Below, one piece after another: positions 2,219 through 20,655 of a stretch of DNA of 32,000 nucleotides. Made by a program: the position numbers and the translations under genes. The DNA lies in NCBI GenBank assembly GCA_024275415.1, contig JAJRZD010000051.1, forward strand, positions 62,074-94,073, given 5' to 3'. The stretch is from an archaeon. GTDB taxonomy: Archaea; Asgardarchaeota; Thorarchaeia; Thorarchaeales; Thorarchaeaceae. The stretch's first letter is position 1, and each line of letters begins with the position of its first letter. The notes beneath the pieces were generated by a model that saw only the letters and a program-made list of their open reading frames with translations, searched no databases and had not been told where the DNA came from.

Positions 2219-3988
2219 TTGGAAATAGCGGTATCTCACCAGGAGAAGAAAATGACCGGGAGCTTCTATACTCCAAATCAGGTAGCAGGAGATATCGTCA
2301 AGAAAGCACTTTCCCATTGGATTAATAGGTCAATCCAACAGTACAGAATCGAGAAACAGCAAGAGAAGGATCTGGATGGTCTTAAGATACTGGATGATAT
2401 TCGAATCTTGGATCCAGCAGTAGGAGATGGTGTGTTCCTCATTGAATGCGGAGAGCATCTGTGTTCTCTGCGGAAGGCATTGGGGGATTATAGAGAAGAA
2501 CACGAAATCCGCAACGATATTGCGAAAAGGAACCTCTATGGCGTAGATATTCAACAACATGTTGTCGATAAGTGCAAGATTACAATCAGGAAGTGGGTTT
2601 CACGGAAGGGTAGCCAATCAAGAATGCATACAAAGATCAATATACGACAAGGGAATAGTTTAATCGGACGGATCAATGGACAATCTCGCAATCATGAATC
2701 AATACCATCCGACATGAGACCATTCAACTGGAGAAATGCATTTCCAGAGGTATTCTCGAACAAGTCATCAGGATTTGATATCATCGTAGGAAACCCGCCT
2801 TACGGCAACATCCTAACAGATCAAGAGAAGGAAACTCTACGGAGGTCGCTGGGTTATGATGTGATGTCGGGAAGGACAGGGTCTTGGAATGCAGCGCCAC
2901 TCTTCATCGTGCGTGCCAAGGAACTGCTCAACCAACAAGGGGTATTAGGGTTCTTGATTCCGAACAGTATACTACGAGTTGGTCAATTCACGAAGACCCG
3001 TGAGTTCATCCGTGACCAGCTCGGACTATGGTGTATCATCGATGAAGGGAACCCATTTGATGGTGTCACACTTGAGATGGTGAGCATCTTCTGTTATGGA
3101 AACCCGAAAAGCCGGCCTCAGGATATAGAGGTCATCTCACACAGGAATGGATCAAACAGGTCCCACGTGATCCCAAGAAAAGCACTTCAAGGGAGGATCA
3201 TTTCAATATACTATGACTCGTTCTTTGCACACATAAAAAAGAAGGGGACATCCAACCTATTGACAGCATCAAGAGGGAGGGACATCCCTGCGGTGCACAC
3301 AAGCGAACGGTCAATTCAAGGGTACGAGATACCGTATGCAACGAAAGGACGGAGCGTCAGACGGTACCGATTCAATGAGGACTACCTAATCTACACGAAC
3401 GAGTGGTTCGAGCACGATGTTGCCATGTCCGAGTCCTATTCCAACGAGTTTCTCGTAGCGACCAAGAACCTGATGTATCCACGGTGTGTAATGAAACCAA
3501 AAGGGGTCATTCATGGTGGGGGAGTGGTCAGGATCATACCTCTAATTGATGACCTAGACATCAAGGCGATAGGACTAATCCTCAACTCCAAGCTCGTACA
3601 ATACGTTTCACGGAGATACCTGACGAACTATTCGCAGTTGACCACATGCCTCAATACTGGGATTATGGAAGAGATTCCTATCGTACTCCCAGATGATACT
3701 AGACCAATGACATACCTATTCGATATCTTGCAGGAGATACATTCTGACGGGAAGAGCAAGGGGGATGGCGCATTAATCGAAAGCTTTGTGGACGCATTGG
3801 TGTATTCGTTATACGTCCCCGATGTTGATTACTTGCAAGGACAAGTCATAGATATTGCATGGTCACTTTTACGCAAGAGCGCCGAAAGATGTATAGAAAT
3901 GCTAGGTCATGAGGACATCCTACACATGCTGGAGGGGATAAGAGCGATCCCTGTCATACAGAAAATCGAAACGGCAACGGCAAGATGA
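2219..3988 (+). CDS. N6-adenine DNA methyltransferase (TaqI/Eco57I-like gamma class), apparently solitary
   Basis: GSFYTP, motif I ILDPAVGDGVFL, LYGVDI, GNSL, motif IV FDIIVGNPPY, LGFLIPNS, and a TaqI-C-like C-terminal region (AIGLILNSKLV...IPIVLP). There is no N-terminal nuclease domain and no adjacent endonuclease. TTG start at 2219 or ATG at 2252. Confidence 0.9.
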   Translation: MEIAVSHQEKKMTGSFYTPNQVAGDIVKKALSHWINRSIQQYRIEKQQEKDLDGLKILDDIRILDPAVGDGVFLIECGEHLCSLRKALGDYREEHEIRNDIAKRNLYGVDIQQHVVDKCKITIRKWVSRKGSQSRMHTKINIRQGNSLIGRINGQSRNHESIPSDMRPFNWRNAFPEVFSNKSSGFDIIVGNPPYGNILTDQEKETLRRSLGYDVMSGRTGSWNAAPLFIVRAKELLNQQGVLGFLIPNSILRVGQFTKTREFIRDQLGLWCIIDEGNPFDGVTLEMVSIFCYGNPKSRPQDIEVISHRNGSNRSHVIPRKALQGRIISIYYDSFFAHIKKKGTSNLLTASRGRDIPAVHTSERSIQGYEIPYATKGRSVRRYRFNEDYLIYTNEWFEHDVAMSESYSNEFLVATKNLMYPRCVMKPKGVIHGGGVVRIIPLIDDLDIKAIGLILNSKLVQYVSRRYLTNYSQLTTCLNTGIMEEIPIVLPDDTRPMTYLFDILQEIHSDGKSKGDGALIESFVDALVYSLYVPDVDYLQGQVIDIAWSLLRKSAERCIEMLGHEDILHMLEGIRAIPVIQKIETATAR

Positions 3989-9449: not shown

Positions 9450-9485
9450 AAAGAGTCAAACGTGCTTGAGTAGGTGGACGAACTC

Positions 9486-10166
9486 ATGTCTGAAGACCCC
9501 GAAATCAAACAACCAACTGAAGAGGAAGAAACCCCGGATACACTAACGCCAGCAGAGCTGGTAAACATTCTGACGAACATCCAGGGTGTTGGTCCTAAGA
9601 ACGCTGAGAAGTTAGTAGAGCAAGGATACGATTCCATAAGCAAGGTCGCAGAGGCTGACCCTGAGGAATTAGCTACTGCGATCTCTGGATTCAGCGTGTC
9701 CAAGGCAGAAGGGATTATCGAGAAAGCAAATGCCCTTCTAGAGCTCATCAAAAGTGGGGTCGTCGATGTTACGGGGAAGGTCAAGAAGACAAAGAGAAAG
9801 AAGGCTCCTGAACCAGACCCGGTAGTACACGAGTTGCCACCTGGAGAAGATATCAAGGCAGTGATGGAGAGAGATTCACTTCTGACCGGTCGTGAGCAAG
9901 AAAACGTCGAGATAGGAATCCCTACAGGTCAGAAATGGCTGAGCAAATTCGAAAAGGCAAGAATCATTGGTGCTCGGGCACTTCAGATCTCGATGGGTGC
10001 CCCCATTCTCGTAAACGCCTCGAAAGCTCCATCGGGGCTCTTCGAAATTGCAGAGATGGAGCTTCGCTCGGGGGTACTTCCCATGACGATCAGAAGAACT
10101 CTCCCCACTGGCAAATACTACGACATCCCTCTATCAGTTCTATTGAAGCACACGCGACTGGACTGA
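9486..10166 (+). CDS. rpo6: RNA polymerase subunit Rpo6 (RpoK/RPB6) with an N-terminal tandem helix-hairpin-helix domain and Lys-rich linker
   Basis: C-terminal LSKFEKARIIGARALQISMGAP...IAEMEL...LPMTIRRTLPTG is Rpo6/RPB6. N-terminal LTNIQGVGPKNAEKLVEQGYDSISKVAEADPEELA...ISGFSVSKAEGIIE is an (HhH)2 module. AGGTGG lies upstream of ATG 9486; GTG 9474 is an alternative start. Confidence 0.9.
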   Translation: MSEDPEIKQPTEEEETPDTLTPAELVNILTNIQGVGPKNAEKLVEQGYDSISKVAEADPEELATAISGFSVSKAEGIIEKANALLELIKSGVVDVTGKVKKTKRKKAPEPDPVVHELPPGEDIKAVMERDSLLTGREQENVEIGIPTGQKWLSKFEKARIIGARALQISMGAPILVNASKAPSGLFEIAEMELRSGVLPMTIRRTLPTGKYYDIPLSVLLKHTRLD

Positions 10167-14030: not shown

Positions 14031-15296
14031 TTAGCTCAGCGGTTGTGTTTCTACTGGCATGTGCCTTTGCACTGTCCGAGGCAATCCGATGGCAGCCGTG
14101 ACTCCACCGGCTACTGAAACGACAACTGCAACTGCTAGGGATGATGCAGCATTGCCAGTTGTATCGAATAGCACCCCTCCCAACAATGGGCCGACCACAT
14201 AGGCACTGTTGCTTACTGCGCCCATGACACCCATTATGCTCCCGTAAGATTGCACATCTGTCAGATCAGCAGTAAGTGCTTGGATTGTCGGGCCTCTCAT
14301 GGAGATGGCAATACCAAGCACGGCACCGCCGAGGTAGAAGCCCACAACGTCTGTGGCAATCATAAATAGATACAACGATAATGCACCAATGAAAGACCCC
14401 ATGACGATGAGCCACTTCCGGCCTAGTTTGTCGGACATCTTCCCGAATATGATATTACCAATGATGGTGATGACACCCAGCACGCCGAAGAATATCCCGA
14501 TCTCCAAAGGGGAAATCCCATAGATAATCACAATCTCAAGCGTGAAAGCGACTTCTAGGATTCCAAGAGCGAACATGTTTGCGAACATCGCGACACCTAA
14601 GGTCGAGTACGCTTTCGGGTTCCGCCTGAGAATGTCGATCACGGGAGGACGCGTGGCAGTCGCTCTCGTGCCTTCGGGTGTAGGTCTATCAGGTTCCTTG
14701 ACAAAGACAACAATTGCAAGAAAGGTGACTAAAGAGCCGATTGCAGCGATGATGAAAGGTAAGCGTATTCCGAGGAACTGGGCAAGAATTCCCCCAATTG
14801 TAGGACCGATTACGAAACCAAGCATATTGCCCATACTGATGTAGCCCATGGCAGTTCCCCTATTCTTTGGTGTTGTCATATCTGAAACATATGCGTTGGC
14901 AGAGGGGTAGAACCCAGCAGATATTGCGCCTTCAATGGTACGGGCAAGGATCATCACTACGATATTCTGCGCGAAGGCATAGACCACATTAGCCAGTGCG
15001 AAGCCGACCATCGAGAACATCAGGATTGGTCTGCGCCCAGTCTTGTCGGAAAGGCGACCCATAGGACCAGCAAGCACGATGCGGGTCAATGCAAAGGAGG
15101 CTGCAAGAATCCCAAGATCCAAGGCACTAGCACCAAGATTGACAACATAATAGGGGAAGATGGGTGTGACTATCCCAAAGCCAATTTGAAGGATAGTCAG
15201 AGAAATTGCCAGAGTAATGACCTGTCGCATTCCTTTTTCTGAGACTGAGGTATCACGAAACTCCAAGAAATCATCAGTTCCAGAGGTCTGTTCCAT
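14031..15296 (-). CDS. MFS transporter (DHA1/TetA-like)
   Basis: 12-helix pattern, motif A GRLSDKTGRR and its repeat GKMSDKLGRK, LARTIEG, RGTAMG and GPTIGG. Confidence 0.92.
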   Translation of the reverse strand: MEQTSGTDDFLEFRDTSVSEKGMRQVITLAISLTILQIGFGIVTPIFPYYVVNLGASALDLGILAASFALTRIVLAGPMGRLSDKTGRRPILMFSMVGFALANVVYAFAQNIVVMILARTIEGAISAGFYPSANAYVSDMTTPKNRGTAMGYISMGNMLGFVIGPTIGGILAQFLGIRLPFIIAAIGSLVTFLAIVVFVKEPDRPTPEGTRATATRPPVIDILRRNPKAYSTLGVAMFANMFALGILEVAFTLEIVIIYGISPLEIGIFFGVLGVITIIGNIIFGKMSDKLGRKWLIVMGSFIGALSLYLFMIATDVVGFYLGGAVLGIAISMRGPTIQALTADLTDVQSYGSIMGVMGAVSNSAYVVGPLLGGVLFDTTGNAASSLAVAVVVSVAGGVTAAIGLPRTVQRHMPVETQPLS

Positions 15297-15358
15297 CTTA
15301 CGTTACGCCCTGACCACCGCAATGATGTGGGCGCTTTTTCAGTCTTACTAGGAGGAAT

Positions 15359-15883
15359 TCACTTGTCTATGATGACCCTGCTGACACCTCGAATCGCAGT
15401 CAGAGTTTCAATTACTCTGCCAGGAAGCGGTTCGTGAGTTATGACCTTCATGCAAGGCTCCTCGTAGATTGCAACATCTTCTGCAAGGACTTGCCTGATT
15501 GCGATGCCGTGTCCAGCAATGCTAGAGGTAACCTCAGACAGTATCCCAGGGGTTTCGGGGGACTCGACATAGATGGTAACGACACCATAACCGAGATAGC
15601 GGCTTGCCTTCTCCAATGACGGACCGGCTGGAAGCAGCGACGAGAAGAAATTGTAGAGTTCAGGAATCTGACATATGTCCTCGGTGGTCGCCCTCACCGT
15701 TCTTCTATCGAACCCAAGTGCGTCACCAATCGACTTGAGAGGGACACGTATACGTCCGCATTTCACAATACCTGGGCCTTCGACTTTGAACCCATGCCTG
15801 ACGATGGCCTGAGCGACAGCAAGTCTACTTGGCGAATCCTTGAAGTGATCCACAATCTTCCGCCACACACTAACCGCATCCAT
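15359..15883 (-). CDS. Archaeal HTH plus ACT-domain regulator of amino-acid metabolism (COG2150-like)
   Basis: N-terminal VAQAIVRHGFKV and helix-turn-helix-like KSIGDALGFDRRTV. C-terminal ACT fold PGILSEVTSSIAGHGIAIRQV. Confidence 0.8.
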   Translation of the reverse strand: MDAVSVWRKIVDHFKDSPSRLAVAQAIVRHGFKVEGPGIVKCGRIRVPLKSIGDALGFDRRTVRATTEDICQIPELYNFFSSLLPAGPSLEKASRYLGYGVVTIYVESPETPGILSEVTSSIAGHGIAIRQVLAEDVAIYEEPCMKVITHEPLPGRVIETLTAIRGVSRVIIDK

Positions 15884-16419
15884 TAGACTATGAGCTTCTC
15901 CATAAGAACCTCATTGATATATCCCTTTGGCATAAGAAAATGTTTCTCCCTCATGCCAACTATATGATATCCAAGCGATTCATACAATCCTAGAGCAACA
16001 TTGTTGGATTCAAAAGTGCTGAGGACAATCTTCTCATATCGTTGTATTCGTCCAGCTTCCTCAACTGCGAGCATCAACGCCCTTCCGACACCTTTGCTTC
16101 TGTAGTGCTTTCTAACGATAATGCCTAAACGTGCAACGTGTTTTGATGCATGCCACTCCTCAGGTTGGAGGCTGACATGTCCGGCATACTCGCCCTCGAC
16201 TCTGGCAACGAGCAACACTTCGCGGTTCGAATAGGTTCGCTGAATCCAGCGTGCCCACTCGCTTTGATTGGAACTCGGCTTTGTTGTGGGTAGCCACTTT
16301 CCTTCCTGTACGACCTCACAGAAGCAATGGAACATCTCTGATGCGTCCGCAACCTTAGCATGTCGAACCACGACAGACTTCTGATCCTTTGTCAAGAAGA
16401 CCCATTCATCCACACTCAT
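15883..16419 (-). CDS. GNAT-family N-acetyltransferase
   Basis: VVVRHAKVAD, LGIIVRKHYRSKGVGRALM, LSTFESNNVALGLYESLGY. Overlaps the ACT gene by 1 nt (TAATG). Confidence 0.9.
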   Translation of the reverse strand: MSVDEWVFLTKDQKSVVVRHAKVADASEMFHCFCEVVQEGKWLPTTKPSSNQSEWARWIQRTYSNREVLLVARVEGEYAGHVSLQPEEWHASKHVARLGIIVRKHYRSKGVGRALMLAVEEAGRIQRYEKIVLSTFESNNVALGLYESLGYHIVGMREKHFLMPKGYINEVLMEKLIV

Positions 16420-16434
16420 TCCCCCAATGAAAGG

Positions 16435-17259
16435 TCAGTTGGAACTCGTAAGAGGGATATCTATTCGAGCCCCGGGCCTCGGGAGCGAGCAGACATAGAC
16501 ACGATCGACCTCAACCATGGCAGTATTCTCGTCCAGTTCCCTGAATGTACCTTTCATCTGGAAGACGGCAGGTTCAAGGGTGACAAGTGAAACCGCTACC
16601 CTTTGACCATCGGAGATGTTGTACCCTCTTTTCTGCTCTTGAGTCCGTTTCATGACAATGCGATTCGAATGTACAGGAAGCATCCCGAACTCTGGAAACC
16701 CTACTGGATAGCCATCTTCGTCAATGAATGAGAGTATCTTTACCGCAGCAAGCTCACGAAACCGCTTAATGATTGGAAATGACATGTTGCCCTCACGAGT
16801 TTCGACATGGGGTACTTTCTTGGCGGCCATCTTTGCCTTGACAAAGCTGGACAATACGCTTATCTTAGAGATAAGGTGTTTCGCACTCACGGAAACAGGA
16901 TTTGCTAGGCCAGCAGCCCGTGCATTAGTGTACTGACTGTACCTAAACAAGGGCGTCATGGCCATGAACTCAAAGACATCATCGTTCCGATGGTATGACT
17001 CGAATTCGGCCTTTATCAACCAGCTCTCAAGATCCATCGTGAGCACAAGAATCGACATCTCACGGTTCCCGTCAAGAAGGTTAAGTCTAGACTTGTAGGT
17101 CATGAAATCGCCATATACAAGCTGGGACTTGTTGTAGACAGTCCATGACATCACTAGAGCACTGTTTGGCTCATTGTTCTTGTCCTTCGTGAACATGAAC
17201 TTCGGGGTTTCAAATACACACATTGCATCTACCAAATCGGATGGTAATAGTCTATCCAC
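16435..17259 (-). CDS. Tandem pyridoxamine-5'-phosphate-oxidase-like (split-barrel, FMN-binding-type) protein
   Basis: Two related halves: PKFMFTKDKNNEPNSA...KSRLNL...MSILV and VKILSFIDEDGYPVG...RVAVSLV...FQMKG. GTG start overlaps the activase stop, with GAGGTGA upstream. Confidence 0.7.
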   Translation of the reverse strand: MDRLLPSDLVDAMCVFETPKFMFTKDKNNEPNSALVMSWTVYNKSQLVYGDFMTYKSRLNLLDGNREMSILVLTMDLESWLIKAEFESYHRNDDVFEFMAMTPLFRYSQYTNARAAGLANPVSVSAKHLISKISVLSSFVKAKMAAKKVPHVETREGNMSFPIIKRFRELAAVKILSFIDEDGYPVGFPEFGMLPVHSNRIVMKRTQEQKRGYNISDGQRVAVSLVTLEPAVFQMKGTFRELDENTAMVEVDRVYVCSLPRPGARIDIPLTSSN

Positions 17260-18229
17260 AAGTATTCACCTCTCTCTGTGGTGTTGATGGTTGTGACCCG
17301 CGGTCTAGTTTTGTCATACCGGACCAGACAACATTGACGACACCTTCGCTCCGGGCTACACGGGCCAGTTCTTCCATGTGATCCCTTTCAATCAGGTCGT
17401 AATCCTTCAATGGATATTCCAGCCCAAAGAGTCGGTATTTCTCAACACACATCTTGTTGAACGCGAGAAGGTCGTAGCGTTCTACATTAGGCAACTCAGA
17501 GCTGATAAAACGTGCGATGGCACGGATGTTGTCTTTCGAGTCAGTGTGCATGGGGATGATTGGTGTCCGCACCCACACAGGAATGTCAGTCGAAGCAAGA
17601 GTCCTTATGTTAGCAAAGATACGTTCCAGAGGGATACCAGTGAACTCTGTATGCTTCTCAGGATCCAGATGTTTCACATCAAGAAGCACAAGATCCATAT
17701 TGTCAATGACCTCTCGCCACACTTTGTCACTAGCATAAGCCGTTGTGTCCAGTGCAACATGAATGCCCTGAGACCTCAGATTCTGAGCGAGACGCACTAC
17801 GAAATCAGCCTGTAGTAGGGGTTCACCACCAGAAATAGTCACGCCACCATCTGAGGTATCAAAGAACACCTTGTCACGTATCAGTTCTTCTGCAAGTTCA
17901 TTGACTTCACGTGACCGTCCAATGAGTTCCAACGCACCTGTTGGACAGACCTCTTCACAGATCCCGCAGACCTTGCATCTCTCGCGGTCAATCATCATGC
18001 CTTCGTGTGTCAGGTTCAGTGCCTTTTCAGGACATGCATCAACACATGCTCGATCACCGATGCATTTGCTCCCATGCCATACAAGGCGTGGTTCGGCGTC
18101 TATCGTTTCGATATTGTGGCACCAGACACATTTCAACGGACAACCCTTGAGGAACACTGTTGTTCGGATGCCGGGCCCATCCTCGGTCGAACAACGTTGA
18201 ATGTTTGTGATAATCCCTGTTTCGCTCAT
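17252..18229 (-). CDS. Glycyl-radical enzyme activating enzyme (radical SAM, with ferredoxin insert)
   Basis: STEDGPGIRTTVFLKGCPLKCVWCHN (CxxxCxxC), ferredoxin insert CIGDRACVDACP / CKVCGICEEVCP, GGVTISGGEP, VALDT, LLDVK and VRTPII. Confidence 0.96.
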   Translation of the reverse strand: MSETGIITNIQRCSTEDGPGIRTTVFLKGCPLKCVWCHNIETIDAEPRLVWHGSKCIGDRACVDACPEKALNLTHEGMMIDRERCKVCGICEEVCPTGALELIGRSREVNELAEELIRDKVFFDTSDGGVTISGGEPLLQADFVVRLAQNLRSQGIHVALDTTAYASDKVWREVIDNMDLVLLDVKHLDPEKHTEFTGIPLERIFANIRTLASTDIPVWVRTPIIPMHTDSKDNIRAIARFISSELPNVERYDLLAFNKMCVEKYRLFGLEYPLKDYDLIERDHMEELARVARSEGVVNVVWSGMTKLDRGSQPSTPQREVNTCG

Positions 18230-20655
18230 TACAGACTGTGCTCCGTACGTCTGATAATCTCCTCTTGGAGCTCTCTTCCGATTTGCGTAAAGAACGCATT
18301 GTAACCGGTGACTCGAACCAAGAGATTGGAATACTTGTCTGGGTTCTTCTGTGCATCTCTGAGGGTTTCTGCATCGATGATATTGATCTGTAGAGCCGTA
18401 CCGCCCACCTCGTTGTAGGCACGTAAGAAAGCGGCAAGTTTCTGAAGATGCTCGGGAGTACGAACCATCGAGGGGCTGATAGTGATAGTATGTGATGCGC
18501 CATTGGGGATGGTGCGTAATTCGAGCTTGCCAACAGACCGAGTCGAGGCAGTGGGTCCCTTCGAATCCATGCCTTGGACTGCTCCCACACCGCCGGAGAG
18601 AAATTCGCCTCGTCTTCTGCCATCGGGTGTCGCTGCGGTAATCGGGGCGAGAGGAATAAAGTAGTTCCAGCTTAGATAACCAGCACGGAACTTTCGTCCT
18701 GTGTACGGATTCTCGTACTTGCGGACCTCGGTCGCCCAGAAGGTGGAAAGGTCATGAGCTATCGAGTCTGCATAATCATCATCATTTCCGTACTTCGGTG
18801 CCTTCTGCCGGAGCAGCTGGCGCAATTCGTCATAGCCTTCAAAGTTTTTCCGAATGGCGTCCAACAGTTCCTTCATCGATACCCTGTTGGTTTCGTACAC
18901 CATCTTCTTGACAGCACTTACCGAGTCAGTCAACGTGGCGATGCCCATGCCCTCCATGGTGTTGAAGTTCCAGATGGTGCCGCCTTCATTGATGTCCTTG
19001 CCATTTGCAGCACAGCCATCCATCAACGCGCTCAGGTATGGAGTAGGTTGCCACTTTGCCCTGATGGTGTCAGCCATGTTCCCTGCATTCACAAGCAATC
19101 GCACCATCTCTGCGAGTTGTGCCTTGACAGCGACAAGGAACTCTTCGTAAGTTGTGAAGGTCATAGGGTCTCCTGTACGTACACCCACTTGCTCGCCAGT
19201 TTCCAGATCGCGTCCGTCATTCAATGCAAGCTCGACAGCCTTGGCAAGATTGATGTTCACATCGACAGTATCTGAGCGGTCACAGCCTTGCATCGTGTTC
19301 TCAAGACAGCCGACAATGCCGTAATCCCACGCTTGCTCACGAGGGACTCCTTGCCAGACGAGACCTTCAATACTGTGCTCATCGAAGTTGAGCAGGAACG
19401 GCGAGCCCTGCGCCTTTGAAAGTATCTCGCAGATTCGTAGGAGCAGGTCATCTGGGGTGTTCCGGTGAATGCGGATGTTCGGCTTAGGCTCCAGCAGGTT
19501 CATCTCCTCGATGACTTCGAGGAGCAGCCATGTGAGCTCATTTGATACGTCCTCACCGTTGGGCCCACAGCCCCCTAATGTCACCAGTTGCCCAAAGCTA
19601 GAGTTGATTCCCTGATTGATTCCGAGCCGTCCTTGAAAATCATACACATAGTTGTGTTTTATCCAGTAACACTGCAAAAGTTCCTTTGCCTCGTCACGGG
19701 TAAGCTCGCCCGACTCGATGCTTGCCTTGTAAAAGGGATACATATACTGGTCGAACCTTCCATGTGATAATCCTGCACCCGGGTAAGATTCGGCAGCCAT
19801 GACCAGGATGTGCGTTGTCCAGAGCGCTTGGAGGGCTTCCCACCACGTTTCAGGTGGTTCCCACGGCACTTTCCTGCAGATCCTCGCTATCTCCTGAAGT
19901 TCAGCCCTCCTTTTCGAGTCAGGTTCTTTTGCAGCAAGAAACTTTGCCTTTTCGGCATATCTCACGTTGAAATCACGGGCGGTTTCGCAGCTGAGGATCA
20001 ATGATTGGACGAACTCCCTGTGGCTTTCAGAGATATCAGAGTTGAGAATCTCCTCAAACTCCTTGACAAGTCCTTTCATTCCGATACGCATTACCTTTGC
20101 ATAGTTTGGTATGATGTGCCCTGGAGCGGAGGATGCAGTCCCGACGCCCACACTGTTAAGACGTTTGGCTTCTTTGAACCATTTTTGCATTTCCTTGTTC
20201 CGAATCTTGGTTTCGGACTTCGTGAGAGACTTTGACAGGGCGGTATTGAAATGAAATCCGACGATGAGTTCGCCATCGATGATCTCGATCGGTATGTACT
20301 TGGTCATGACCTCGTAGAAGAAGATAGCCCGTCGCATGGGCAGACCATGGTCATAATAGTCATCGGGCAGGTCAACATGGATTGCCATGGCTTGCAAGGT
20401 CGCATCAATCGAAGCGAAAAACTGGTATATCGCAGGCTCGTTTGCCCAGTCGTGGTAGGAGTATACCTCATCCCACTCGTCCCCAGAGGTGAAGGAGATG
20501 ACCTCATTGGTGAGATCACGTTCGTGGAATGAATAGAAGTGATCCCTGAGCTTCTTCACTCTTTCAGTCAAGTCTTCAGAAGGGGACCAGATAGAAACCA
20601 TATCAGCATCGTGGTCAAGTGTCATGTAGCATTCTTCCCATCGGGCGGTACTCAA
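18229..20655 (-). CDS. Glycyl radical enzyme (PFL2/eliminase-like), substrate unknown
   Basis: C-terminal Gly-radical loop LLVRVTGYNAFF, Cys loop YGIVGCLEN, SHGRFDQYMYPFY, QLVTLGG, KYGNDD and ATPDGR. Start uncertain (TTG 20655, ATG 20625 or ATG 20601). Confidence 0.95.
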   Translation of the reverse strand: MSTARWEECYMTLDHDADMVSIWSPSEDLTERVKKLRDHFYSFHERDLTNEVISFTSGDEWDEVYSYHDWANEPAIYQFFASIDATLQAMAIHVDLPDDYYDHGLPMRRAIFFYEVMTKYIPIEIIDGELIVGFHFNTALSKSLTKSETKIRNKEMQKWFKEAKRLNSVGVGTASSAPGHIIPNYAKVMRIGMKGLVKEFEEILNSDISESHREFVQSLILSCETARDFNVRYAEKAKFLAAKEPDSKRRAELQEIARICRKVPWEPPETWWEALQALWTTHILVMAAESYPGAGLSHGRFDQYMYPFYKASIESGELTRDEAKELLQCYWIKHNYVYDFQGRLGINQGINSSFGQLVTLGGCGPNGEDVSNELTWLLLEVIEEMNLLEPKPNIRIHRNTPDDLLLRICEILSKAQGSPFLLNFDEHSIEGLVWQGVPREQAWDYGIVGCLENTMQGCDRSDTVDVNINLAKAVELALNDGRDLETGEQVGVRTGDPMTFTTYEEFLVAVKAQLAEMVRLLVNAGNMADTIRAKWQPTPYLSALMDGCAANGKDINEGGTIWNFNTMEGMGIATLTDSVSAVKKMVYETNRVSMKELLDAIRKNFEGYDELRQLLRQKAPKYGNDDDYADSIAHDLSTFWATEVRKYENPYTGRKFRAGYLSWNYFIPLAPITAATPDGRRRGEFLSGGVGAVQGMDSKGPTASTRSVGKLELRTIPNGASHTITISPSMVRTPEHLQKLAAFLRAYNEVGGTALQINIIDAETLRDAQKNPDKYSNLLVRVTGYNAFFTQIGRELQEEIIRRTEHSL

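Follow-up and report, generated by a model that had tools for sequence, protein, structure and literature searches.

The six-gene locus

The genes described here lie on a 32,000-nt stretch of DNA from an archaeon of the Thorarchaeaceae (contig JAJRZD010000051.1). This whole stretch is referred to as the window and all positions are counted within it; it corresponds to contig C30 of a 3.5-Mb, 92.9%-complete metagenome-assembled genome (MAG). Between 14031 and 20655, the list of open reading frames (ORFs) and the reading of the sequence give six ORFs that run head to tail on the minus strand, headed by a glycyl radical enzyme (GRE), its activase and a protein composed of two split barrels (SB). 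The analysis presented below makes it likely that the locus consists of two units, a GRE-activase-SB cassette (20625-16435), also called the trio, and a separable module of GNAT, TrpY-like and MFS genes (16419-14031; unit 2). The six features are:

18229..20625, minus strand: GRE of an uncharacterised clade, 798 aa (PF02901, 506.9 bits; PF01228, 94.9 bits)
17252..18229, minus strand: GRE activating enzyme (activase), a radical S-adenosylmethionine (SAM) protein with a ferredoxin-like insert (TIGR02494)
16435..17259, minus strand: SB, 274 aa, with two barrels of the FMN-binding-protein/HupZ type in one chain (fold prediction)
15883..16419, minus strand: GNAT N-acetyltransferase, 178 aa (PF00583, 64.4 bits; cut-off 20.7)
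15359..15883, minus strand: TrpY-like transcription regulator, 174 aa, with a helix-turn-helix and a weakly ACT-like C-terminal half (NF053754)
14031..15296, minus strand: MFS transporter, 421 aa (PF07690, 223.6 bits; cut-off 33.4)

The GRE and activase genes share one nucleotide at 18229 (TAATG), and the GTG start of SB at 17259 overlaps by 8 nt with the end of the activase gene, the TAG of which stands at 17252-17254. SB and GNAT are separated by a gap of 15 nt, the GNAT and TrpY-like genes again share one nucleotide in a TAATG at 15883, and 62 nt lie between the TrpY-like and MFS genes. The initial annotation of this DNA had reported six co-directional, tightly joined genes, and all the junction lengths it gave agree with this reading. 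The longest GRE ORF opens at a TTG at 20655. Because the homologues are 798-799 aa long and align from the ATG at 20625, this ATG is probably the start of the gene. Stop and start codons that overlap in this way usually indicate co-transcription, and the six genes are probably co-transcribed, with unit 2 downstream of the cassette on one strand.

The glycyl radical enzyme, its activase and the split-barrel protein

GREs are oxygen-sensitive radical enzymes that catalyse demanding reactions under anaerobic conditions, and every clade to which a function was newly assigned has brought a new pathway to light. The window GRE belongs to the superfamily that resembles pyruvate formate-lyase (PFL), as it combines a PFL-like barrel domain with a C-terminal glycine-radical domain that contains the RVxG motif, here RVTG774Y. 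It has a single catalytic cysteine in a C-x-E thiyl loop (Cys440-Leu-Glu442-Asn-Thr), which places it by motif in the CXE-type eliminase/isomerase class. G439-C440-L-E442 is invariant across the clade, and the CXE loop, Gly774 and His170, the equivalent of His164 of glycerol dehydratase (GD), are all invariant in 22 clade members. CXE is the hallmark of the GRE eliminases and isomerases; its glutamate is bonded to the substrate hydroxyl and His164 of GD protonates the leaving group (PMC13450708). In the same review His164, Cys433 and Glu435 are confirmed as active-site residues of GD. A second cysteine of the window loop (GCLENTMQGC) was considered as part of a redox pair and rejected, as Cys, Lys or Asn is found at that site across the clade.

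The GRE stays below every NCBIfam equivalog cut-off. It reached 547.2 bits with the PFL2-3 subfamily TIGR01774 (cut-off 678.2), 497.3 bits with HypD NF043068 (cut-off 1100), 435.6 bits with CutC TIGR04394 (cut-off 1050) and only 115.8 bits with PFL TIGR01255 (cut-off 994), and its loop (VGCLEN) has a single cysteine. The sulfonate GREs, which were compared by score and not by their Arg/Gln/Arg anchor residues, gave 478.9 and 417.4 bits for HpsG/HpfG (NF048011 and NF048009, cut-offs 1000) and 333.6 bits for IslA (7kq3). Among the X-succinate synthases TutD gave 220.8 bits and MasD 247.3 bits, versus 431 for GD, and an ORF for a beta or gamma subunit that resembles a high-potential iron-sulfur protein (HiPIP) was not found in or beside the operon.

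Among solved structures GD (1r8w) is the closest relative, with 431 bits against a self-score of 1855 for the GRE, and its pocket is not preserved. The GD pocket residues His281-Ser282, Tyr339, Asp447 and Tyr640 (1r9d) are all replaced, so that of the GD and propanediol dehydratase (PD) pocket only His164 is kept. In the clade His281/Ser282 becomes Ala/Pro284 and Gly285 (Ala284 in this copy; pairwise and clade alignments), and in the window GRE Tyr339 becomes Gly345, Asp447 becomes Val454 and Tyr640 becomes Leu651. The replaced positions are invariant or nearly so across the clade. Ala284-Gly285 also stands at the position of Asp278-Ala279 of HypD, where Asp278 binds the substrate amine. The signature motifs of the clade alignment, ESYPG[AP]G.S, NQGI[NT]S[GS][FY]GQL and VGCLENT..G.DRSGTVD, stand where the pocket residues of GD, PD and HypD would be and set the GRE apart from those families. 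With all equivalog cut-offs missed and a pocket that differs from these three, the description as an uncharacterised GRE given in the initial annotation is upheld.

The clade is monophyletic with respect to two other Asgard GREs (SH-aLRT 100). The genome of the window contains two further GREs, one of the GD type (GHSMS, GCVEP) and one that is HypD-like. The latter (L001, on contig C23 of the window's genome, G000) has a GCVT loop, with Thr where the CXE glutamate would stand, and one in-frame TAA. In a single-contig 4.4-Mb Asgard genome (G213; L099 and L100) only one HypD-like and one trio-type GRE are present, neither of which has a Cys-Cys loop. If this genome is that of the cultured strain MK-D1, its GRE content would bear on the 2-oxoacid-formate lyases that have been assigned to Asgard archaea.

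The activase scored 323.8 bits with TIGR02494 (PFLE_PFLC; cut-off 174.35), and its cluster motif CPLKCVWC has the CX3CX2C spacing of radical-SAM proteins. It is the sole match above this cut-off in its genome, and no activase lies within 1.5 kb of either of the other two GREs. This activase therefore probably serves these two enzymes as well.

For SB no Pfam family was found above cut-off. Its predicted fold (pLDDT 85.1, pTM 0.85, from a 16-sequence alignment) consists of two split barrels and is that of the split-barrel (PNPOx-like) superfamily. Residues 1-129 superpose on 3in6 with a Z of 17.0, on HupZ with a Z of 16.1 and on FMN-bound YviC and the Desulfovibrio FMN-binding protein 1axj with a Z of 14.4 each (VIA). 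In a wide VIA-align search only the first barrel was aligned in nearly all matches; the second half is recognized by a Foldseek match and a weak Pfam match. Foldseek returned the same small FMN-binding/HupZ families for SB, and a profile search against solved sequences likewise matched HupZ and 3in6. Whole-length Foldseek matches to PilZ-type proteins were disregarded in view of a root-mean-square deviation (rmsd) of about 15 Å. The predicted fold and the superpositions thus bear out the earlier name of tandem split-barrel protein, and this fold makes SB probably flavin binding. The SB family is a small one: in a set of 1.84 billion proteins it forms 381 clusters at 50% identity. Nearly all its members have two-barrel length. 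The last 16 residues (window 16435-16480) have a pLDDT below 50 and are predicted to be disordered, and the tail carries residues that are invariant across Bacteria and Archaea (Y255, P260, P262, G263 and R265). This conservation suggests that the C-terminal tail may cap a cofactor or dock a partner. A complex prediction with GRE residues 73-798 and full-length SB, both given as alignments, yielded ipSAE values of 0.00 and 0.01 in a run without controls, a result that counts neither for nor against binding.

Recurrence, trees and absences

Full-length relatives of the GRE were searched for in 301 Asgard genomes. Identities of at least 70% were found in about 43 genomes, all of the same family, of 57-59% in 5 genomes, of 52-55% in about 16 and of 44-49% in about 54; below approximately 39% just the core aligns, and these proteins represent other GRE types. 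Roughly 120 of the 301 Asgard genomes sampled thus contain the clade, which is also found in several bacterial phyla. The close homologues are labelled Thorarchaeota, and the named hosts of the cassette elsewhere include Anaerolineae (60% GRE identity), Polyangia, Deltaproteobacteria, Thermodesulfobacteriota and Jordarchaeales.

The neighbourhood was compared over about 19 kb around 20 representatives and at 56 loci found with SB in named genomes, and all six window proteins were scored. Some duplication remains in the locus counts, L014 and L095 being one and the same contig. At the Thorarchaeota-type loci with room upstream, GRE and activase both precede SB in 37 of 37 cases. At the other loci with such room the GRE precedes SB in 29 of 29 and the activase in 26 of 29. 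SB was found beside a GRE without a nearby activase at L012 and L096, and between GRE and activase at L026. When all ORFs of 30 diverse loci were clustered, GRE/activase and SB were each present in 29, and the next family in 4. As no other neighbour recurs among these 30 loci, the cassette appears self-contained. Nothing beyond the trio occurs in more than 4 of them, and the recurring neighbours in the 30 loci gave no clue to the substrate. Unrepeated contexts include urocanase with imidazolonepropionase (L038) and sugar ABC transporters (L005).

Two further observations were made at bacterial cassette loci. An ORF of 244-249 aa, which may be a regulator, lies directly upstream of the GRE at three of them (L092, 2886-3623; L094; L097). 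On a bacterial contig with CtsR and sigma-70 (L041, 7001-8557; L042; protein P0387), an ORF of 518 aa runs from a GRE fragment, 61% identical to residues 203-629 of the window GRE, into the C-terminal half of SB. Its sequence resembles that of a decayed cassette in which a deletion has joined the two genes.

The two trees agree. In the GRE tree bacterial and archaeal sequences are interleaved within the clade, and its eight supported groups are found again in the SB tree, the branches of which are about 2.5-3 times longer. Since the trees match, the two genes have been inherited and transferred together. The pattern of absences separates SB from the activase. Besides another GRE, four genomes (G027, G037, G063 and G069; 91-99% complete) contain a genuine activase with 310-321 bits, and no SB was found in them by a search with the SB family profile. 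In G027 and G037, which are 98-99% complete, the gene order is Ig-like protein (up_517), activase, GNAT, TrpY, MFS and Memo. Here the orthologous activase (58% identity) stays in place, and the GRE on its one side and SB on its other side are both absent. In G116 the activase-GNAT arrangement is likewise kept without GRE and SB, and a trio of a different subclade is present on another contig. These absences imply that SB follows this GRE and not the activase.

Unit 2 behaves differently. The nearest curated families of the GNAT are acetyltransferases of amino-acid analogues (ArsN1/PAT type), all of which it matches far below cut-off, as exemplified by NF040503 ArsN1a (71 bits; cut-off 170). 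The regulator matched NF053754 TrpY_fam over its full length with 155.8 bits. Because this is below the cut-off of 180 it is named TrpY-like only, and its ACT domain signal is weak (E 0.013). The MFS protein is most like drug:H+ antiporters and Tet-type efflux pumps (TIGR00880, 154 bits; cut-off 131). Neither the GNAT nor the MFS protein reached a curated NCBIfam equivalog. Acetylation and export of an amino-acid-like compound is plausibly the role of this unit.

At the 31 Thorarchaeota loci with at least 2.7 kb downstream, GNAT, TrpY-like and MFS genes are all present in 25, GNAT and TrpY-like alone in 3 (MFS is missing at L066, L068 and L071) and none in 3 (L077-L079); they occur in 0 of the 25 other loci with downstream room. 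The flanks in Thorarchaeota (Memo, histidyl-tRNA synthetase, Ig-like protein and ThiN regulator) are as syntenic as unit 2. Because these unrelated genes are conserved to the same extent by shared descent, the conservation of unit 2 inside Thorarchaeota is weak evidence for a link with the GRE. GNAT and TrpY-like genes are kept without this GRE at L035, L036, L037, L101 and L102. In G075 (98% complete) GNAT, TrpY and MFS stand between the same flanks without GRE, activase and SB, and no GRE match at E<=1e-100 was found genome-wide. G236 has kept of the trio only a remnant of the activase, with the GNAT module in place. The retention in G075, G027 and G037 implies that unit 2 follows neither the GRE nor the activase. 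From these distributions we infer a Thorarchaeota-specific module that would be independent of the GRE, neither unit needing the other.

In one genus of the same family (L018 and L019, from G155 and G116, and L036) another contig carries a trio whose GRE, at 53-55% identity, belongs to a different subclade. This subclade groups in the tree with other Asgard families, and an orphan activase is found at the ancestral activase-GNAT-TrpY-MFS site. The sequences suggest replacement of the cassette by transfer in this genus.

The remaining genes of the window are housekeeping genes: thermosome, histidyl-tRNA synthetase, Memo, MgtC, an ABC transporter and a ThiN-type regulator. Within the 32 kb there is no gene for a dehydrogenase, a microcompartment shell or a small Fe-S subunit, which extends to the whole window what had been noted initially for the operon. 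Apart from these, the window encodes a Zn-phospholipase-C domain protein with bacterial TSP3 repeats (760-2031), an Eco57I/MmeI-type N6 DNA methylase (2219-3988) and an ORF that unites a helix-hairpin-helix domain with an RNA polymerase Rpb6 (RpoK) domain (9474-10166).

Interpretation and comparison with known systems

The likely reading of the locus, a self-contained GRE-activase-SB cassette followed by a separable GNAT/TrpY-like/MFS module, has to be weighed against several points. The genomes that lack the GRE are few and related (three genera) and all are MAGs, and the polarity of the change is unrooted, so that GRE and SB may have been lost from, or gained around, a resident activase. Three of the 29 non-Thorarchaeota loci have no adjacent activase. 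In Thorarchaeota unit 2 is tightly spaced behind SB, by 15 nt in the window, and this spacing together with its retention at 25 of 31 loci makes a lineage-specific functional link possible, in which the TrpY-like protein might, for instance, regulate the entire operon. The members of the GRE clade are known from sequence alone. With regard to a flavin-type partner, SB reached 18.6 bits with PF01243, under the gathering cut-off of 28.1, and its probable flavin binding is deduced from the fold alone. All these points weigh against the two-unit interpretation or against the nature of the partner that it proposes.

It had originally been proposed that the six genes form one pathway, in which the MFS protein would move an amino-acid or amine compound, the GRE would cleave it, the GNAT might N-acylate the substrate or product and the ACT-type regulator would sense the compound. 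The single strand, the very short junctions and the arrangement at 25 of 31 Thorarchaeota loci with downstream room agree with this proposal, as does the fact that the nearest curated relatives of the GNAT acetylate amino-acid analogues. We nevertheless consider it quite unlikely, as the three genes are found in none of the 25 non-Thorarchaeota cassette loci nor at L077-L079, the unrelated flanks in Thorarchaeota are just as syntenic, which points to shared descent, the three genes are retained in G075, which has no GRE, and in G027 and G037, where only the activase accompanies them, and the MFS protein resembles efflux pumps and not importers. N-acylation of a pathway compound was not borne out for a GNAT that is absent from the loci elsewhere and kept in the GRE-less G075. 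The same distribution speaks against the ACT regulator as the amino-acid sensor of the pathway, and the MFS protein, being separable from the GRE in G075 and outside Thorarchaeota, is not supported as the carrier of its substrate. Of the partner recurrence that had been expected, SB with the GRE (37 of 37 and 29 of 29 loci) was confirmed, and GNAT, TrpY-like and MFS, which are confined to Thorarchaeota, failed to recur. The caveat of the initial annotation, that GNAT, ACT and MFS genes could be passengers, is the better reading in view of this distribution and the GRE-less genomes. Its claim of a new radical pathway is partly supported, that is, for the trio only.

Within the trio, SB could alternatively be a substitute for flavodoxin, a low-potential flavoprotein that reduces the [4Fe-4S] cluster of the activase and so belongs to the activation machinery. 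The start of SB overlaps the stop of the activase here and at many loci, the closest structural relatives of SB are small FMN-binding proteins of the electron-transfer type, and the PFL activase of E. coli uses flavodoxin (PMC13450708). However, four related genomes have a genuine activase and another GRE but no SB, SB is gone from G027, G037 and G116 with the orthologous activase in place, it is found by a GRE without a nearby activase (L012 and L096) or between GRE and activase (L026), and its tree follows that of the GRE. This role is therefore judged unlikely. It is very unlikely that the GRE is a divergent glycerol/diol dehydratase and SB an unrelated, hitch-hiking small flavoprotein. Although GD (1r8w) is the best solved match and the CXE loop and the His164 equivalent are kept, the GD residues His281/Ser282, Tyr339, Asp447 and Tyr640 are replaced by residues conserved in the clade, the same genome already has a GD-type GRE (GHSMS, GCVEP), and a 1,3-propanediol or aldehyde dehydrogenase was found beside the cassette in 0 of 30 loci. 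Moreover, hitch-hiking is inadequate as an explanation because the trees match across domains and GRE and SB are absent jointly. In Asgard genome papers such GREs have been taken as alkyl-/benzylsuccinate synthases or as pyruvate/2-oxoacid formate-lyases. Homologue records are named 'pyruvate formate lyase family protein' or 'formate C-acetyltransferase', single-Cys PFL-like genes of Hermod- and Thorarchaeota have been assigned to Ass/Bss (PMC8163825), and 2-oxoacid-formate lyases have been invoked in Asgard catabolism (PMC7015854). These labels are hardly credible for the window GRE. It has no Cys-Cys pair in the thiyl loop and 115.8 bits with TIGR01255 against a cut-off of 994, it is roughly half as similar to BSS (220 bits) and MASS (247 bits) as to the eliminases (431 bits), its CXE motif is typical of eliminases and isomerases, and the operon has neither room nor an ORF for HiPIP-like beta/gamma subunits. 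The name 'pyruvate formate lyase' conflicts with the clade because the loop is of the single-Cys CXE type. The motifs thus contradict three published labels, namely pyruvate formate-lyase, hydrocarbon-activating synthase and 2-oxoacid formate-lyase.

For the cassette of the two-unit reading the following chemistry can be proposed from its motifs. The activase would install a radical on Gly774, after which Cys440 would become a thiyl radical and take a hydrogen from a hydroxyl-bearing carbon of the substrate. Glu442 of the CXE loop would deprotonate this hydroxyl and His170 would aid the departure of the neighbouring leaving group. The outcome would be the cleavage of a C-O, C-N or C-S bond by 1,2-elimination, or a ring-opening isomerization; other CXE enzymes follow the same course with other substrates. 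SB would act with the GRE and may be an accessory subunit bound to it or a redox enzyme dedicated to its substrate or product. It would not be a general electron donor for the activase, which would be shared among the GREs of the genome. A bolder and tentative proposal, which we do not expect to hold, is that SB represents a new flavin-based class of GRE accessory protein that binds the GRE and feeds or removes electrons, so that the clade would perform a net redox reaction. If true, this could be for instance a reductive C-X cleavage like ribonucleotide reduction, a reaction type that would be new among PFL-like GREs, in Asgard archaea and sediment bacteria.

New in this work are the absence patterns, the matched trees, the neighbourhood counts and the finding that the activase is the sole member of its class in the genome. 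The cassette moves between domains as a three-gene unit, with a kind of partner that has been undescribed for any GRE; in practice, the target for biochemistry is three genes and not six. As reviewed recently, all characterized PFL-like GREs are bacterial, and entire clades, most of all the archaeal ones, are without validation (PMC13450708). In the same 2026 review HPAD, BSS and MASS are the only GREs for which accessory subunits are listed, each of them Fe-containing, and no GRE partner of the SB type is included. A paper joining 'glycyl radical enzyme' with 'split barrel' was not found, nor a characterization of the clade in the Asgard or sequence-similarity-network literature.

Archaeoglobus fulgidus PFL2 (2f3o) is the only structurally studied archaeal PFL-like GRE. 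Like the window GRE it is archaeal, has a single Cys and is of debated function, and with 398 bits it is about as similar to the window GRE as the bacterial eliminases are. It belongs to a different clade, and its loop reads GCVEIAPFG instead of GCLENTMQG. With the B12-independent GD DhaB1 of Clostridium butyricum (1r8w/1r9d) and its activase DhaB2, and with the other CXE GREs (PD, HypD, CutC, IslA/IseG, HpsG/HpfG, HplG and PflD/YbiW), the window proteins have in common the 10-stranded barrel fold, RVxG, the single-Cys CXE loop, the His164 equivalent and an adjoining, dedicated radical-SAM activase with a ferredoxin insert. The window GRE differs from the CXE enzymes in that it reaches at most 431 bits with any solved member, against 1855 with itself, and in that the substrate positions of GD, PD and HypD are replaced. 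Its cassette has no dehydrogenase or microcompartment genes but an obligate SB partner, which none of the others has.

The small subunits of HPAD, BSS and MASS resemble SB in being small extra proteins that are encoded and inherited together with a specific GRE instead of the activase. They are Fe proteins that resemble HiPIP or rubredoxin (PMC13450708), whereas SB, a putative accessory protein, is a 274-aa tandem barrel with no Cys cluster motif. Each half of SB superposes on proteins of about 120 aa, Swol_0183 (3in6), 1axj, YviC (7eg5) and HupZ (5esc/7kpz), with a Z of 14-17 and an rmsd of 1.8-2.4 Å, and its N-terminal half has a G-x-P-N ... T-R-x-N stretch in common with HupZ. These single-barrel proteins are homodimers, whereas SB consists of two diverged, fused barrels that form an asymmetric pseudo-dimer with a conserved C-terminal tail. 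None of the four is linked to a GRE, as SB is.

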